52,798 nucleotides of DNA from Octopus sinensis. Taxonomy: Eukaryota. Made by a program: the position numbers and the translations under genes. The first letter of the stretch is position 1, and every line of letters begins with the position of its first letter. The notes below the pieces were generated by a model. That model searched no databases. It was not told where the DNA came from and saw nothing but the letters and a program-made list of their open reading frames with translations. Where the stretch lies: assembly GCF_006345805.1 (NCBI RefSeq), contig NW_021834149.1, positions 1-52,798 on the forward strand, given 5' to 3'. Below are positions 12,060-45,267 of the stretch, one piece after another.

Positions 12060-12530
12060 TCTGCTGACATCTACGCCTAATTAACTATCAATTTGAAATT
12101 ATCCAGCTTTCGTATTATTTCGTCTCTATCGAATTGCAAATCATCCATTCGACTTGTTAGTCCATCATCTCGATGTATTGTCAGCTTTCTACATAACTCA
12201 AGGCCAAATGAGATTTTGATGTTTTCACTAAATTGGTTGACAAAGCTGAAGAAATGTTCAAGCAACACACCATTTCGTTATTACACTATCCACAATCACG
12301 TTATCTACCAAAACAAAATGGCGGGTGAACGAGGTCTTCGTTCGACTTCTCTCTTCCAACAAATTGGCTGTTTGCTTTTGCCAACTAACTATAAGTTAGA
12401 CCAGCAGATCAGAAACCCTAATTATTTGAAATATCCCTGAGGATATTTTAACGAGATTGGAATTAACAACATTAGCGTTATTGGAGTTTGTAATAAACGT
12501 CTGCCACATTCTAATTGTTAATTTAGTGAC
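12060..12530 (-). pseudogene. Old R4/Dong-type RT fragment
   Basis: FVNQFSENIKISFGLELCRKL resembles TVKSFSDDIGMEFGLEKCAKA. Confidence 0.55.
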
Positions 12531-12934: not shown

Positions 12935-13728
12935 TTTTATTTTTCTCCCTACCTTATCACTTCTCTCCCCTTCTTTCTGTTCCTCTCATCTCTTTCTCCC
13001 TCTGTCTCTCTTTTTATCACTCTCTCTCCCTCATTTTCTCTTCTTCTTTACCTTTTTTCTCTCCTCCTCCTCTCTGTTCCTCTCCTCTCTTTCGCTTTCT
13101 CCCTCTTTTTCTTTCCCTTTTCTATCTTTCACTGTTTCTTTCTCTTTCTCTTACTCTTTCTCTCCCTCGTCTCTCTCTCTTTCTATCTTTCATTTTCTCT
13201 TTTGCTTTCTCTTTCTCTTACTCTTTCTCTCCCTCGTCTCTCCCCCCCCTCTCTCTCTCTCCTCTCTCCCTCTCTCTCTCTCTCTCTTAGAATCAGCCAA
13301 GTAAATAGTCCAACAAAGAAACGGTCCCTCACCACCCCACTAATCCCTTCATCCCCCTCTCAGTCAACACTACGAGAAACAATAAAACAAAACATACAAA
13401 CATACAAATATAAAACATAGGATTCAGGTATACACCACTCTTCCCGCTCCTTCATTATTCTCTGCCCTCATCTCATCTCATATGGTTAGATTAGATTTTA
13501 ATGAGGAGATGAATGAACGTAAAATTATGGGACTAAATACCTTGTGGTATTTAATGTTACCTCATTATGCTACCGACCCCTAATCCCACTAATTTCAAAT
13601 TAAGAGCCAAATATTCTTAAAATCACACGCTACCGTCTTAAATAGAATTCCTTTGATCATGGATTAAATTCTTAATCCATTTAAGAAACACACAAAACTG
13701 TTAGATTCACTTCAACATTTAAATTTAA

Positions 13729-13779
13729 TTTGCCAAAATATTTTCGTCGCTTTGAGACCACGACCTGTTCACTGACAAA
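13729..13779 (-). ncRNA. Minimal type I hammerhead, G3-C8 swapped core
   Basis: tttgtca GTGAACA g gtcgt ggtctcaaa gcgac GAAA atat TT | tggcaaa; 7 bp stem I, 5 bp stem II, self-complementary AAAATATTTT stem III. Confidence 0.7.
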
Positions 13780-14369
13780 ATTCCGTGCTGTTTTCGTTCC
13801 AGCACACAATTTCAGACCAGGTAACTTGCTATGCAAGTACATCTCCGTAAATTTTTAATGAAAATTATCTACTTTGGTGTCATGTGACTGGACCTGATAG
13901 CTCAGCGATACCGGAGAAGAACCGAAAGGAAACAATACCTTATAAGATAAACCTCGTAATAAACTACAGTTTTTCTTTTGAGTTGTTATCTTGAGATTTA
14001 CTTTAATTATATAATTAGCAAGCTCTCCTGTCATACAGCTCTGGAGAAACATTTATAGAATTGATTTGGTTCTGGTTGTTCTGAAAATGACAAATAAAAA
14101 GACACCCCCGAAAAATTTACAACGCCTAGATCTATGAATGTGGTTTGTTAAATGTGACTCCCGGGTTATCGACAGAATGAAATATCCCCTGCAGCATGTC
14201 CTGTGTGGCCACTATATTTCGTACTTTTAACGCAGTTCAATGCAGAGAAATAAATACATAAACAAATGTATAAATCATAACATATGACTGCTGATATAAT
14301 TAAAGCAACGTAACCCAGGACAGACAATACAGGGTATAATAAATTTTGTATTTGCTCAGTCGTTCGTTA

Positions 14370-14440
14370 AGCAGAGTGGCGCAGTGGACGCATGTTGGGC
14401 TCGTGCCCCCAACTCCGTAGATCGAAATTATGCTCTGCCA
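14370..14440 (+). pseudogene. Initiator tRNA-Met pseudogene
   Basis: agcagagtggcgcagtgga.gc.tg.tgggc...gatcgaaa...ctctgc matches eukaryotic tRNAi-Met (AGCAGAGTGGCGCAG start, GATCGAAA T-loop); anticodon arm decayed. Confidence 0.8.
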
Positions 14441-14461: not shown

Positions 14462-14807
14462 TGTAGTAAAGATTGTTTGCCAACATAACATGACAGTCCT
14501 GGTTTAGGACGAATGTTGCTGTAGTTTAGCCCCAGGAGACATCGTCCCCAGCTGGCTATACAACACGATCTGTGTCCTTATATTTTAGAACAAGGGAATC
14601 TAGCAGCCCCACTCAGCTCAAAACAATATCCGGAAATCGCGATACACAGATATTCAGTGGGGGTGATAGATTCCCTTGTTCGAAAATATAAGGACACAGA
14701 TCGTGTGGTATAGCCAGCTGGAGACAATGTCTCCTAGGGCTAAATTACAGCAACATTAGTCCTTAACCAAGACTACCATGTTACGTTGGCAAACAATCTT
14801 TACTACA
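14462..14807. mobile_element. ~150-bp-arm inverted repeat, PLE-like, with half a hammerhead in the spacer
   Basis: 14462-14613 versus 14657-14807; the spacer has GAAA tcgcga TA cacag (14633-14649). Confidence 0.75.
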
Positions 14808-15053
14808 AAGTACTGTTGCTGAATATCTCACGTTGTGAGATTTAAAAATAGTAATTTACTAATTTTCATATTTATACATCGAAAGTGAGTTGTCTACAAA
14901 TGTACAAACCTGCAGGAGTTAATACAAAGAATAACATGCTATAGAAATTTATACAGAGTAAAGGAGTTACCAACAGACTCGACTTAGACGAAAACCCAAG
15001 TGGCAAAGTGGGCATAGTACCGATAGTGGTAATGACATATATAAGTCTCTCGA

Positions 15054-15259
15054 TTATAGGCACAAGTTCTGAAATTTGTGGAGGAGGGGGTCCAGTTAAT
15101 TACATCGACCCCAGTGTTCGACTGCTACTTATTTTATCGTTCTCGAAAGAATGAAAGGTAACGTCAACCTCGGTGGAATTTGAACTCAGAACGTAGAGAC
15201 GGGCGAAATGCCACTAAGCATTTCGTCTGGCATGCGAACGATTCTGCTAGCTCGCCACC
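15054..15259 (-). mobile_element. tRNA-derived SINE family A
   Basis: Reverse complement of ggcgagctagcagaatcgtt...gttctgagttcaaattcc...ggggtcgatgtaatt. Confidence 0.9.
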
Positions 15260-15294
15260 GTCTATAGAAAATGTAATAATATGATTTAGTTATA

Positions 15295-34156: not shown

Positions 34157-36430
34157 TTTTTTTTCTTCTTTCAAATTTCTTCCATTTCTTGCCGAGTGTC
34201 TTCCCTACTCCTAGGGCAAAGAAACTCATAGTGTATATTGGTAGGCCATTAAACCAAACTCAGTAGTTCGTTCATTTTTTTTTTAATTTTTTTTTTTAAA
34301 GTTAAATTAAAATACATGAGCAGCAACAGTTCTCACATCGACAATGCTCTTCTCAATACGTGTGATGTACCAGTTAAGACAATCTTTTGCACTTCTTGCA
34401 GGGATGGTAAGCCAGGGATCATTTTCATATAATTTTTGGTTCCCTTCTTGATCATTCCTAGTGCTCCTACGATCACTGGTATTGTAACCGCCTTGAGATG
34501 CCACATTTTCTCAATTTCAATGAGTAGGTCTTTATATTTTCTGAGCTTGTCAAACTCTTTCGCTGAGATATTATGATCACAGGGGATGCTCATGTCGATC
34601 AATAAGCAAACTTTATTGTTTTGGTCTTTCACAACAATATCTGGTTATTGGCCTTGATGGTTCGGTCTGTATGTACTGGAAAGTCCCACAGAATGGTTAC
34701 ATTTTCTCCTTCAGTTACAGCCTCAGGGTGGTGATTATACCACTTGTCGGCAGTTTTGATATTGTAATGCCGACTTATTAGCCAGTGGAGATATTGGCCA
34801 ACTCTGTCATGTCTTAATTTATACTCCACTGGTGCTAAGACTTTACATCCAGAGATTAGGTGGTCCACTGTTTCAATCATGTCGTTGCAGAATCGGTATT
34901 TTGGGTCTGTTCCATTTTTCATCACATTGGCCTGGTAGTTCCGGGTTGATAGGCTTTGGTCTTGAGCAGCCAGGATGAAACCTTCCTTCTCTGCTTTTAG
35001 CCCTGAGCTCCGCAGCCACTGATGGGTTTGCTTCTGTTCAACATCAGCTTGTTTGCTGCGGGTCACATATTTGCCGTGCAGAGGTTTCTCCTCCCACCTA
35101 TCAGCCAATTGCTCGTGCGCTTTTTTCATTGCCATCATTTTCACCTTCTTTGCAACAATAGTTGCCGTACTTCCCTCGGGTTGTTCAGTTTGGGTATCCT
35201 GCACGAGAGCAATAGCAAATTTTTTGCTTTCCTTGATGATAGAATGAAGCTTCTTTCGTCTCTCGTGATTTTCCACGAGCTTTAGCATCCAGTCATTCGA
35301 TATTTCGAGATATTTGGCCAGTCCAATTATGGTTGTTTTGTAAGCTAGTTCAAATTGGATCAGGCCTCGACCTCCTTGGGCTCTGGGAAGGTAAAGGCGA
35401 TCTACGTCTGCCTTTGGGTGGTGCATCCTATTACAACTCAGCAGCTTGCGTATTTTTCTATCTATATTCTTTACTTCACTCATATTCCAGTTCAACACAT
35501 TGTAGCTATAAGTAACAACTGGAACTGCTAGGGAATTATAGCTAACACCTTGTTACGTGCATTTAGTTCAGATTTCAGGACTGCACGAACTCTCCTATAA
35601 CATTCCTTCCTGATTTTCTCTTTCATGCTTGCATGCTGAATACCAGAGCCTTCATTTATCCCTAAAATTTGTATGTCTGTTCTTGCTCAAGCTCTCTTAT
35701 GACTGTGTCAACATCTAACACGACTGAATTTGTGGTCTTCACTTTCCCTTTCTGGAAAGTGGCCTTGGCACACTTCTCAAGTCCAAACTCCATCCCGATG
35801 TCATCGCTGAATGATTTCACGGTGCGCAATAGGCCTTCAAGTTCATTATTGTCTTTACCATAAAGTTTTAAGTCATCCATATAAAATAGATGGCTTATTT
35901 TTTTATTGGCAATTTTATACCCATACCCTGTTCTGTTTAATTCACTTGTAAGGGGTATTAGGGCTATGCAAAATATTAAAGGTGAAAGTGAGTCACCTTG
36001 AAAAATTCCACAGTTGATGTTTATATTTTCTGAGGCAAGTACTCCATTAGAGTGGTATAATTGGAGATTCGTATTCCACAACGACATATTGTGCTTCAGG
36101 AAGTTTGAAATCACAGGGGAAATTTGAAGATGTCCAGCGATCTCAAGATCCATGGATGCGGTATACTGTCGAAGCCTTTTTATAGTCAATCCATGCGGTG
36201 CTGAGATTTCTGCGCTTGTTGTGACAGTTCTCAAGGATCGTACGATTGATTAGCAGTTGATCTTTGCATCCGTAAGAGCCTCGGCGGCACCCTTTTTGTT
36301 CGATGGGGAAAATATCGTTCTTCTCCATGAATGCATATGTTTTCTCCGCCAGGATAGATGTTAGGATTTTATACGTGGTGGATAGACAGGTTATAGGCCG
36401 ATAGTTTTTTGGAAGGTTGGTTTCGTTATT
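34157..36430 (-). mobile_element. R4/Dong-type RLE non-LTR retrotransposon, 5'-truncated copy A
   Basis: Near-identical to 36680-38945; RT and RLE split by single-base indels; A-rich 3' end running into (TAA)n. Confidence 0.95.
34333..36430 (-). pseudogene. Frameshifted RT-RLE ORF of copy A
   Basis: ORF pieces 36143-36328, 35662-36234, 34629-35498 and 34333-34632 tile the protein of copy B. Confidence 0.9.
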
Positions 36431-36454
36431 ATTATTTCGTTATTATTATTATTA

Positions 36455-36523
<69 letters not shown>

Positions 36524-36531
36524 CATTATTA

Positions 36532-36681
<150 letters not shown>

Positions 36682-36846
36682 TTTTTTTTTTTTCTTCTTT
36701 CAAATTTTCTTCCATTTCTTGCCGAGTGTCTTCCCGACTCCTAGGGCAAAGAAACTCATAGTGTATATTGGTAGGCCATTAAACCAAACTCAGTAGTTCA
36801 TTTTTTTTTTTTAAGTTAAATTAAAATACATGAGCAGCAACAGTTC

Positions 36847-38706
36847 TCACATCGACAATGCTCTTCTCAATACGTGTGATGTACCAGTTAAGACAATCTT
36901 TTGCACTTCTTGCAGGGATGGTAAGCCAGGGATCATTCTCATATAATTTTCGGTTCCCTTCTTGATCATTCCTAGTGCTCCTACGATCACTGGTATTGTA
37001 ACCGCCTTGAGATGCCACATTTTCTCAATTTCAATGAGTAGGTCTTTATATTTTCTGAGCTTGTCAAACTCTTTCGCTGAGATATTATGATCACAGGGGA
37101 TGCTCATGTCGATCAATAAGCAAACTTTATTGTTTTGGTCTTTCACAACAATATCTGGTTTATTGGCCTTGATGGTTCGGTCTGTATGTACTGGAAAGTC
37201 CCACAGAATGGTTACATTTTCTCCTTCAGTTACAGCCTCAGGGTGGTGATTATACCACTTGTCGGCAGTTTTGATATTGTAATGCCGACTTATTAGCCAG
37301 TGGAGATATTGGCCAACTCTGTCATGTCTTAATTTATACTCCACTGGTGCTAAGACTTTACATCCAGAGATTAGGTGGTCCACTGTTTCAATCATGTCGT
37401 TGCAGAATCGGTATTTTGGGTCTGTTCCATTTTTCATCACATTGGCCTGGTAGTTCCGGGTTGATAGGCTTTGGTCTTGAGCAGCCAGGATGAAACCTTC
37501 GCTCTCTGCTTTTAGCCCTGAGCTCCGCAGCCACTGATGGGTTTGCTTCTGGTCAACATCAGCTTGTTTGCTGCGGGTCACATATTTGCCGTGCAGAGGT
37601 TTCTCCTCCCACCTATCAGCCAATTGCTCGTGCGCTTTTTTCATTGCCATCATTTTCACCTTCTTTGCAACAATAGTTGCCGTACTTCCCTCGGGTTGTT
37701 CAGTTTGGGTATCCTGCACGAGAGCAATAGCAAATTTTTTGCTTTCCTTGATGATAGAATGAAGCTTCTTTCGTCTCTCGTGATTTTCCACGAGCTTTAG
37801 CATCCAGTCATTCGATATTTCGAGATATTTGGCCAGTCCAATTATGGTTGTTTTGTAAGCTAGTTCAAATTGGATCAGGCCTCGACCTCCTTGGGCTCTG
37901 GGAAGGTAAAGGCGATCTACGTCTGCCTTTGGGTGATGCATCCTATTACAACTCAGCAGCTTGCGTATTTTTCTATCTATATTCTTTACTTCACTCATAT
38001 TCCAGTTCAACACATTGTAGCTATAAGTAACAACTGGAACTGCTAAGGTATTTATAGCTAACACCTTGTTACGTGCATTTAGTTCAGATTTCAGGACTGC
38101 ACGAACTCTCCTATAACATTCCTTCCTGATTTTCTCTTTCATGCTTGCATGCTGAATACCAGAGCCTTCATTTATCCCTAAATATTTGTATGTCTGTTCT
38201 TGCTCAAGCTCTCTTATGACTGTGTCAACATCTAACACGACTGAATTTGTGGTCTTCACTTTCCCTTTCTGGAAAGTGGCCTTGGCACACTTCTCAAGTC
38301 CAAACTCCATCCCGATGTCATCGCTGAATGATTTCACGGTGCGCAATAGGCCTTCAAGTTCATTATTGTCTTTACCATAAAGTTTTAAGTCATCCATATA
38401 AAATAGATGGCTTATTTTTTTATTGGCAATTTTATACCCATACCCTGTTCTGTTTAATTCACTTGTAAGGGGTATTAGGGCTATGCAAAATATTAAAGGT
38501 GAAAGTGAGTCACCTTGAAAAATTCCACAGTTGATGTTTATATTTTCTGAGGCAAGTACTCCATTAGAGTGGTATAATTGGAGATTCGTATTCCACAACG
38601 ACATATTGTGCTTCAGGAAGTTTGAAATCACAGGGGAAATTTTAAAGATGTCCAGCGATCTCAAGATCCATGGATGCGGTATACTGTCGAAGGCCTTTTT
38701 GTAGTC
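36847..38706 (-). CDS. Reverse transcriptase + zinc knuckle + restriction-like endonuclease (open C-terminal part of a disrupted ORF)
   Basis: DYKKAFDSIPH, GIFQGDSLSPLIF, HLFYMDDLKLY, YRFC..ETVDHLISGC, RHD, KPDIVV...LIDMSIP...KY; the start given in the ORF track is a frameshift artefact. Confidence 0.93.
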   Translation of the reverse strand, partial: DYKKAFDSIPHPWILRSLDIFKISPVISNFLKHNMSLWNTNLQLYHSNGVLASENININCGIFQGDSLSPLIFCIALIPLTSELNRTGYGYKIANKKISHLFYMDDLKLYGKDNNELEGLLRTVKSFSDDIGMEFGLEKCAKATFQKGKVKTTNSVVLDVDTVIRELEQEQTYKYLGINEGSGIQHASMKEKIRKECYRRVRAVLKSELNARNKVLAINTLAVPVVTYSYNVLNWNMSEVKNIDRKIRKLLSCNRMHHPKADVDRLYLPRAQGGRGLIQFELAYKTTIIGLAKYLEISNDWMLKLVENHERRKKLHSIIKESKKFAIALVQDTQTEQPEGSTATIVAKKVKMMAMKKAHEQLADRWEEKPLHGKYVTRSKQADVDQKQTHQWLRSSGLKAESEGFILAAQDQSLSTRNYQANVMKNGTDPKYRFCNDMIETVDHLISGCKVLAPVEYKLRHDRVGQYLHWLISRHYNIKTADKWYNHHPEAVTEGENVTILWDFPVHTDRTIKANKPDIVVKDQNNKVCLLIDMSIPCDHNISAKEFDKLRKYKDLLIEIEKMWHLKAVTIPVIVGALGMIKKGTENYMRMIPGLPSLQEVQKIVLTGTSHVLRRALSM

Positions 38707-39672
38707 ATGTGGTGCTGAGATTTCTGCGCTTGTTGTGACAGTTCTCAAGGATCATACGATTGATTAGCAGTTGATCTTTGCATCCGTAAGAGCCTCGGCG
38801 GCACCCTTTTTGTTCAATGGGGAAAATATCGTTCTTCTCCATGAATGCATATGTTTTCTCCGCCAGGATAGATGTTAGGATTTTATACGTGGTGGATAGA
38901 CAGGTTATAGGCCGATAGTTTTTTGGAAGGTTGGTTTCGTTATTCTTTGGGAGTAGGTAAGTAATGCCACTTGCTAACCATTCAGGTGTTTTCTTTGGGT
39001 CTCTCAAAATTCCATTGAGCAGCTGAACTAGCTTACCGTGTGCGCACGGGAGCGATGCGAGCCAGAAATTCGGCCCTATCTTTACCGGGGATTTCCAATT
39101 ATGGGCCTTCGTGACTGCCTTTCTTAGGTCTGCTATTGTGATGTCTTCCCATGCTTGTTGTTGTAAATTTTGGTAGGATCTTTCAGTTTGTATAATCCAG
39201 TCTGCATTTATGTTGTACGTCTTCTTGTCACTCCAAATCCTTTCCCAAAAGTTTTGAACTTCTTCCATGGGAGGGGGGTCTTTAACGGTTACTTTCTCCT
39301 TCCCTATTTCTCTGTAGAATTTTTTGGCATTGGATGTGAACAGCTTATTTTGCTTGAAAACTTGTTTCTCTTCTCAAATCTTCGTATTCTTTGGGCTTTT
39401 GCTTGGACTTTTTGTTTCAGCGTTTCTTTTATTGATATCAGTTCTTCTCTTGGTGAGGATCCAAATTTTCTCTTCATCTTTCTTCCTGTTCTGGATCTTA
39501 CATCATTTCCACATATTAGTTCATTTAATATTGATATTTCCCCTCTCATAAATTCAATCTCTTTTTCAATTTTACTTCTCCAGGTTTGATTTCTTCCCAG
39601 GTTTTGTTTTCTTTGTTTTTTCGGGGGAATACAGCTGGTTTCAATTGCCCTAGCAGAAGCGTAAATAAGTTC
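38705..39672 (-). pseudogene. Upstream part of the same ORF (RT domains 0-2), frameshifted and truncated
   Basis: NWKSP...FWL, GITYLLPK, NYRPITCLSTTYKILT, EQKGCRRGSYGCKDQLLIN; upstream KQKVQAKAQRIRRFEKR. Confidence 0.9.
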
Positions 39673-39703
<31 letters not shown>

Positions 39704-43889: not shown

Positions 43890-44241
43890 AAGAAGGAAAT
43901 AACCTGAATATTTTATCTCTTTTTTGTGATATGTGTATGTGTGTGTGTGCATGTGTGTGTGCGTGTGTGTGTGCATGTGTGTGTGTGCATGTGTGTGTGC
44001 ATGAGTGTGTGTGTGTGTGTTTGAGTGTGTGTATGTGTGTGTGTGTGGTGTGTGTGTGTGTGTGTATAGGTATATACAACTATATGTGTGTATCTTTTTG
44101 TTTTTGTGTTTGTCCGCTAGCATCGCTTCACTAGTATTGGTTTGTTTCCGTCCATGACCATTAGCGGTTCGGTAAAAAGTGTCCGATAGAATAAGTACTA
44201 GGGTTTAAAGAAAAGAAAAAGGAAGAAAAGTAAGGAAGGAA

Positions 44242-44273
<32 letters not shown>

Positions 44274-44617
44274 GAAGAAGGGAATAACCTGAATATTTCA
44301 TCTCTTTTTTGTGATGTGTATGTGTGTGTGCGTGTGTGTGTGTGCATGTGTGTGTGTGCATGTGTGTGTGCATGAGTGTGTGTGTGTGTTTGAGTGTGTG
44401 TATGTGTGTGTGTGTGTGTGTGTGTGGTGGTGTGTGTGTGTATAGGTATATACAACTATATGTGTGTATCTTTTTGTTTTTGTGTTTGTCCGCTAGCATC
44501 GCTTCACTAGTATTGGTTTGTTTCCGTCCATGACCATTAGCGGTTCGGTAAAAAGTGTCCGATAGAATAAGTACTAGGGTTTAAAGAAAAGAAAAAGGAA
44601 GAAAAGTAAGGAAGGAA

Positions 44618-44649
<32 letters not shown>

Positions 44650-44988
44650 GAAGAAGGAATAACCTGAATATTTCATCTCTTTTTTGTGATGTGTATGTGT
44701 GTGTGCGTGTGTGTGTGTGCATGTGTGTGTGTGCATGTGTGTGTGCATGAGTGTGTGTGTGTGTGTTTGAGTGTGTGTATGTGTGTGTGTGTGTGTGTGT
44801 GGTGGTGTGTGTGTGTATAGGTATATACAACTATATGTGTGTATCTTTTTGTTTTTGTGTTTGTCCGCTAGCATCGCTTCACTAGTATTGGTTTGTTTCC
44901 GTCCATGACCATTAGCGGTTCGGTAAAAAGTGTCCGATAGAATAAGTACTAGGGTTTAAAGAAAAGAAAAAGGAAGAAAAGTAAGGAA

Positions 44989-45029
<41 letters not shown>

Positions 45030-45075
45030 GAAGAAGGGAATAACCTGAATATTTCATCTCTTTTTTGTGATGTGT
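43890..45075 (+). repeat. Tandem triplication, ~375 bp unit (SINE C tail + GAAA + TG repeats)
   Basis: ctagcatcgcttcactagtattgg at ~44118, ~44493 and ~44868; aataacctgaatattt occurs four times. Confidence 0.92.
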
Positions 45076-45267
45076 ATGTGTGTGTGTGCGTGCGTGCGTG
45101 TGTGTGTGTGTGTATCTTTGCGTGTGTATTTGTCCACCACCACCGCTTGACAACTGATATTTGTTTGTTTATGTCCCCGTAACTTAGTAATTCGGTAAAA
45201 GAAACCGATAGAACCAGGATAACAAAAAAGTGGGACTGATGTTGATTTGTTCGACTAAAAATTTTTC

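Follow-up and report, generated by a model that had tools for sequence, protein, structure and literature searches.

A swapped 3-8 core pair as the family state of a hammerhead motif in the terminal repeat of an octopus Penelope-like element

The 52,798-nt stretch of Octopus sinensis DNA analysed here (the window) carries on its minus strand, from 13779 to 13729, a 51-base hammerhead motif, confirmed as real by sequence and fold, in which core positions 3 and 8 form a G-C pair instead of the canonical C-G. The motif belongs to the terminal repeat of a Penelope-like retrotransposon (PLE), and G3-C8 is the state of the repeat family rather than a product of decay in the window copy. The preferred reading, held with a probability of about two in three, is that this is a minimal type I PLE hammerhead with a swapped 3-8 pair that likely still cuts itself, slowly, and likely only when a second copy supplies helix III or the element's protein assists. 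An earlier sequence-only reading had recognised the hammerhead, although it gave neither the strand nor the placement in a PLE terminal repeat. The features concerned are as follows.

13729 to 13779, minus strand: minimal type I hammerhead motif whose 3-8 core pair is G-C (from sequence, fold and cross-family pair counts)
13773 to 13779, minus strand: stem I, 5' arm (from the fold)
13766 to 13772, minus strand: core positions 3-9, GUGAACA, with G3 at 13772 and C8 at 13767 (from sequence and family state)
13765, minus strand: additional G between 9 and 10.1, common to all sister families (an invariant alignment column)
13746 to 13764, minus strand: stem II, 5 bp with a 9-nt loop II (fifth pair U·G here, C-G in most copies)
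13736 to 13745, minus strand: GAAA box, AAUAUU palindrome (15.1-16.1) and U17 (from sequence)
13729 to 13735, minus strand: stem I, 3' arm (A>G subfamily variant, U·G pair kept)
13673 to 13790, minus strand: PLE terminal repeat, direct part (pLTR fragment), with 88% identity to copies behind intact RT/GIY-YIG frames
13789 to 13853, plus strand: the family's 3' tail (~58 nt) in inverted orientation, head-to-head with the direct part, a typical PLE insertion structure

Stem I comprises 7 bp (13779-13773 with 13735-13729), including one U·G, and stem II comprises 4 bp plus one U·G (13764-13760 with 13750-13746). The core GTGAACA, with one extra G before stem II, had been described correctly and lies at 13772-13765; GAAA occupies 13745-13742, U16.1 is at 13737 and U17 at 13736, and hammerhead numbering would place the cut between 13736 and 13735. 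All of U4 G5 A6, A9, G12 A13 A14 and A15.1-U16.1 are present in the window copy, as are an NUH cleavage triplet (UUU) and a Watson-Crick 3-8 pair (G-C), and it is only the literal C3 and G8 of CUGANGA that are replaced, by G3 and C8. U17 makes a weak cleavage site. The claim that all three stems are in register holds for stems I and II and fails for stem III, which in the monomer consists of 2 bp on a 2-nt loop and is open in the minimum free energy (MFE) fold. A monomer without a stable helix III is typical of PLE minimal hammerheads, which use their palindrome instead. Here the hexamer AAUAUU at positions 15.1-16.1 is usable for a dimer helix III, but the 10-mer palindrome originally named for dimeric cleavage is not, as it also pairs A13/A14 with U17/U1.1 and so blocks the core. 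The AAUAUU self-duplex alone is worth -0.2 kcal/mol and the competing 10-bp duplex -3.8 kcal/mol.

Taken alone, the window copy is weak evidence for a hammerhead. The motif occurs once in the window and its fold is modest (z -1.94, with 11 of 200 shuffles folding equally well); no hammerhead is among the three Rfam matches at E<=10 in 13400-14400, nor among the best 150 of 326 Rfam matches over the whole window. A hammerhead on the plus strand was rejected, there being no meaningful fold (z +1.42).

The repeat in the window, 13673-13853, is a ~180-nt terminal-repeat fragment in which a direct part is joined to an inverted tail, and the direct part stops ~30 nt before the first of the family's 3' ends. 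Longer copies, followed in the upstream direction, lead into reverse transcriptase (RT) and GIY-YIG coding sequence, with open frames of 839 and 1,042 aa that end 0.9-1.0 kb before the motif. The RT and GIY-YIG assignment comes from Atlas matches (scores 0.95-0.97), in which parts of the protein fall with RVT_1/HTH_animal and GIY-YIG clusters, RVT_1 being found on 30-48% of cluster members and GIY-YIG on 15-18%. Motifs read in the frame and a 40-sequence profile that matches solved RTs (E 2e-5) agree with an EN+ PLE protein; single-sequence Pfam and PDB searches of the frame gave nothing significant. The truncated copies with inverted partners, the optional tail and the AT-rich targets are likewise those of EN+ PLEs. 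A CX3CxxC linker is present between RT and endonuclease (EN) and points to the Neptune/Nematis type as described in the available text of PMC8557442, the RT tree itself being built without named clade references. The frame has 138 homologous proteins, the best-scoring of which bears the name of an octopus protein and is placed by the RT tree within the C3-G8 sister family. Near-identical long frames (97-98%) suggest recent activity. All of the long copies examined are 5'-truncated, and one same-sense motif pair, 1,969 nt apart, was seen among them; the window copy is a solitary insertion, probably inert by itself.

Several other repeats lie in the window. A broken RT remnant that retains the motif HRDDGL (12100-12500, minus strand), which we take to be a Naiad/Chlamys-type PLE, lies ~1.3 kb downstream of the fragment, and a link between the two was rejected, the family protein having no tblastn match in the window at E<=1. 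Partial tandem copies of a non-LTR retrotransposon occupy 34333-39700 on the minus strand, with long TTA/TAT arrays on their flanks and a 634-aa frame that matches RVT_1 (E 1e-20) and bears a C-terminal endonuclease-like motif, presumably R4/Dong-like. There are also a ~350-bp inverted repeat at 14462-14807 (arms 84% identical; also in locus L010) that is possibly a MITE, a common short interspersed repeat at 15023-15283 with matches in many of the loci examined, and a 375-bp tandem repeat at 43942-45113 (3.1 copies, 96% identity) made of microsatellites.

That the core represents a variant family rather than decay, as the sequence-only reading had proposed, is borne out across the genome. Exact-pattern searches returned 8,683 G3-C8 matches (12 for the reversed control pattern) against 304 for G3·G8 (control 15) and 88 for C3·C8 (by subtraction from 9,482), and the 407 matches to C3-G8 (control 139) come from a sister repeat outside the G3-C8 family. 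A DNA search of the species' own 2.7 Gb genome yielded 2,447 candidates, of which 40 were scored, and the GTGAACA core is present in 29 of the 30 loci retrieved, the remaining locus differing by one base at position 4. The motif is covered by contigs of four runs that bear four organism labels (one run may be the assembly source), and among the matches listed (40 of 45) none varies at position 3 or 8. When stem II and GAAA are also demanded, the G3 pattern gives 6,411 matches against 5 in the control, with C8 in 92 of the first 100 listed, and the shared-architecture pattern lacking G3 gives 8,901 against 1, the first 100 rows of which were counted by hand as 52 U-A, 35 C-G, 4 U·G and 9 mismatches; these G3 and non-G3 shares are extrapolations, because the listed rows all come from the start of one chromosome. 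Extrapolated in this way, only ~1/8 of the motif copies in this clade and genome fit CUGANGA, and the descriptor of Craig et al. (2021), given as ^cuganga in the part of the source available, would miss the present motif, as had been anticipated for CUGANGA-based searches.

An older G3-C8 subfamily differs from the rest at N7, in loop II and in palindrome length (AAUU); by hand count, 19 of its 31 listed rows are G3-C8, one is G3·G8 and none has C3. Copy number alone shows no selection, because the G3-C8 copies all derive from one lineage. The G3·G8 and C3·C8 states are each one transversion from the family state, and the former outnumber the latter by 304 to 88. A G3·G8 intermediate lineage is unsupported, the 30 G3·G8 loci examined being scattered mutants of several subfamilies.

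Searching with the RT brought in sister PLE families. One of these, ~55% identical over the frame, has a CUGAUGC core and a terminal repeat shared with short CUGAAGA copies, and another, ~50% identical over the frame, has a UUGAAAA core. The CUGAUGC family is young, with near-identical long open frames, C at position 9 and many genomic copies (for example L258:7305-7356 and L260:2020-2071); its older copies carry A9, and C9 is found in 15 of the 35 C-G rows among the first 100 listed non-G3 matches. This natural core variant is expected to be damaged, and the intact frames of the young C9 family indicate that amplification tolerates a damaged core. The U3-A8 sister family, with a 4-nt palindrome (loci L266-L268 and L278-L306), makes up about half of the 8,901 non-G3 matches, judging from the first 100 listed. 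In the RT tree, support for the G3-C8 family is 100/100, for the C3-G8 and U3-A8 families together 99/98 and for all three as one clade 97/92; the G3-C8 family is sister to the other two as a pair, a topology that does not fix the ancestral state. This tree contains 27 rows, without short stretches and most outgroups, and a 67-row quick tree gives the same three-family topology. On the G3-C8 branch, which is long at 0.37 substitutions per RT column, the only core changes are at the two paired positions.

An alignment of 24 chosen copies has C-G at the 3-8 pair in nine, G-C in eight, U-A in six and another combination in one, and at two stem II pairs both partners change, so that the stem covariation looked for by the sequence-only reading appears in both the 3-8 pair and stem II across the sister families. 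Paired cells reach 97% against 9-54% in slid controls, and the shuffle controls overstate covariation because the 24 rows were hand-chosen and stand for only a few family-level events; changes in stem I were read by eye and left uncounted, since the columns are misaligned for some families. Flanks compared between families are 48-56% identical, which is shuffle level (means 50-54%, maxima 57-63%), and U4, G5, A6, G10.1, C11.1, G12, A13 and A14 are invariant across the aligned copies. Judged from these alignments, positions 3 and 8 covary among three Watson-Crick pairs, G-C, C-G and U-A, in what amounts to about three independent family-level events, not 24.

The biochemical background, which is drawn here from partial texts of the papers cited, bears on how such a swap could be tolerated. 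In the active hammerhead G12 is the general base and the 2'-OH at position 8 joins acid catalysis (PMC6155905, PMC8495972). A full pairwise scan found a G:C swap to be the only rescue in the CUGA region (PMC9901934), and in the Poseidon PLE hammerhead of Anolis the C3G/G8C double mutant partly restores cleavage, which also needed the element's protein (PMC11167929). Minimal hammerheads of PLEs cleave weakly and form dimers via their palindrome (PMC4209133, PMC6765202). A Watson-Crick pair between 3 and 8 may be supposed to stay under selection because what the active fold requires is the pairing itself and the 2'-OH of position 8, and not a G base as such; with the base at 8 held by its pairing with position 3, the swapped pair could work. 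The laboratory rescue by the double mutant and the weak dimer cleavage of PLE minimal hammerheads together argue for slow cleavage that is assisted by a dimer or by protein, in which helix III would be supplied by a second copy or folding would be helped by the element's protein. The U17 site, G as the extra base, the weak AU-only dimer helix and the competing 10-bp duplex are likely to impose further penalties on the rate.

The structure of genomic copies was examined in 97 copies sampled by the motif downstream of the predicted cut. Their 3' ends fall at two sites 58 nt apart (33/97 and 52/97), 64 of those 85 copies run into AT-rich flank, and the two end sites plus tail match the internal RT start sites and tail in the Anolis PLE, as far as the available text of PMC11167929 describes them. 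In the upstream direction 92 of the 97 copies continue beyond the predicted cut, 78 of them as far as position 3, which means that uncut RNA was the template for most copies. No cleavage signature is found in the 5' ends of these copies: three of the 97 start at the site, all ambiguous, since each is an inversion junction that the self-homology of stem I accounts for, and stem I is where inversion junctions concentrate (10 on its 5' edge and 3 at the cut). The 5' ends are most frequent at a site 58 nt before the cut (13 copies), and a non-genomic G precedes 12 of these 13 ends where long copies have T, for which a capped transcription start is the probable explanation. This start site (L134:7000 and short copies in L142-L226) may bear the cap signature of a pLTR promoter. 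Long copies have an acceptor-like sequence directly upstream of the sharp 5' end; a spliced origin for that end is disfavoured, only one non-genomic G being shared, without an upstream exon. Same-sense tandem copies were found at one locus among the 364 examined. Under the preferred reading, transcription would begin ~58 nt before the cut site and reverse transcription beyond it, at the two sites 58 nt apart, so that short cDNAs of uncut RNA would account for most genomic copies. The 92 copies that span the cut and the young C9 family with intact frames stand against the predicted cleavage, and the rarity of same-sense tandems among the loci examined stands against the dimer route.

The same observations lend some weight to the main rival, which is clearly the less probable reading though one to be taken seriously: the fold may be kept as a structural signal, for protein binding, RT pausing or template switching, with negligible cutting in vivo, so that 3-8 covariation would reflect selection on the fold and not on the chemistry. 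Copies made from uncut RNA, the young sister family with C9 and the clustering of inversion junctions at stem I would all fit, as would the findings that hammerhead mutants left PLE insertion unimpaired in vitro, where cleavage is dispensable, and that no RNA-seq reads begin or end at the site (both from the portion of PMC11167929 available). Against it, G12, A13, A14, U4, G5 and A6 are invariant across families whose flanks are saturated, and the palindrome stays self-complementary through its change in length; an invariant core and a kept palindrome are predicted by catalysis rather than by a generic hairpin.

A ribozyme that is dead in this lineage, with two neutral complementary changes in a master copy amplified by hitchhiking, is improbable. 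The single lineage behind every G3-C8 copy, the unexplained excess of G3·G8 over C3·C8 and the need for one of the changes to have passed via a mismatched state are all in its favour, but the core changes on a branch of 0.37 substitutions are confined to the two paired positions, the G3-C8 pair persists in the older subfamily, and the 30 G3·G8 loci are scattered over subfamilies and do not form an intermediate lineage. A chance hammerhead look-alike inside the repeat would account for the modest single-copy fold and the lack of a hammerhead match in Rfam, yet it is largely refuted by homology and can be given scarcely any credence, since the position in the element, the extra G and the stem II register are the same in the canonical CUGAAGA sister family, and PLE terminal repeats are the expected place for such motifs (PMC4209133, in part). 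A slowly cutting PLE hammerhead with a swapped pair stays the preferred reading.

The interest lies in the family and not in the window copy. No new mechanism is implied, the swap being already known as tolerated in the laboratory; what is added is natural covariation, through three Watson-Crick states, for a tertiary pair known from structure and mutagenesis, of which U-A was the only natural swap found before in the literature searched. Searches by core string strongly undercount hammerheads in some animal genomes, and sister elements that are matched and recently active but differ in their cores make the purpose of PLE hammerheads directly testable. A wider claim, that G3-C8 is a third catalytically active natural core state recurring across Penelope-like elements, is possible but doubtful. 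Were it true, a large share of eukaryotic hammerheads would be invisible to CUGANGA descriptors, perhaps including those of PLE clades reported without them, and the sister families would form a natural rate series (C-G, U-A, G-C and C9) bearing on why PLEs keep a ribozyme.

Natural U3-A8 hammerheads have been published (Perreault et al., 2011, PMC3088659), including those of Schistosoma PLEs (PMC4209133), and Fig. S3 of PMC4209133 shows 56 cores, 53 of them CUGA and 3 UUGA, none of which starts with G. The G3-C8 variant in PMC3884650 is, in the text available, a laboratory construct only, and the accessible parts of PMC11014351 and bioRxiv 10.64898/2026.07.22.740005 hold nothing further on natural G3-C8. 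No natural example was found in the literature searched. The natural U3-A8 motifs resemble the present one in the compensatory change of a 3-8 Watson-Crick pair; U-A is reached, however, by two transitions via a wobble, whereas G-C takes two transversions via a mismatch and places a purine at position 3. Engineered C3G/G8C hammerheads (PMC11167929, PMC9901934 and, as cited by others, Martick and Scott, 2006) have the identical core swap, with partial rescue of cleavage, but are laboratory constructs, whereas the present swap is fixed in a natural lineage of thousands of copies. Compared by description only with Neptune/Nematis-type EN+ PLEs (PMC8557442), the element differs in its tail, ~58 nt here and 30-40 there. 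The closest likeness is to the PLE minimal hammerheads of Cervera and de la Pena (2014, PMC4209133), as far as that paper was available, with which the motif shares its location in a pLTR behind an RT and GIY-YIG frame, the extra nucleotide between 9 and 10.1, G10.1-C11.1, a short palindromic helix III, thousands of solitary truncated copies and a natural U3-A8 variant. It differs from them in its G3-C8 core and in having G as the extra base where their consensus is H, although one row, Nasonia, has G there too. By position and homology the motif belongs with the PLE minimal hammerheads, and it would work as they do.
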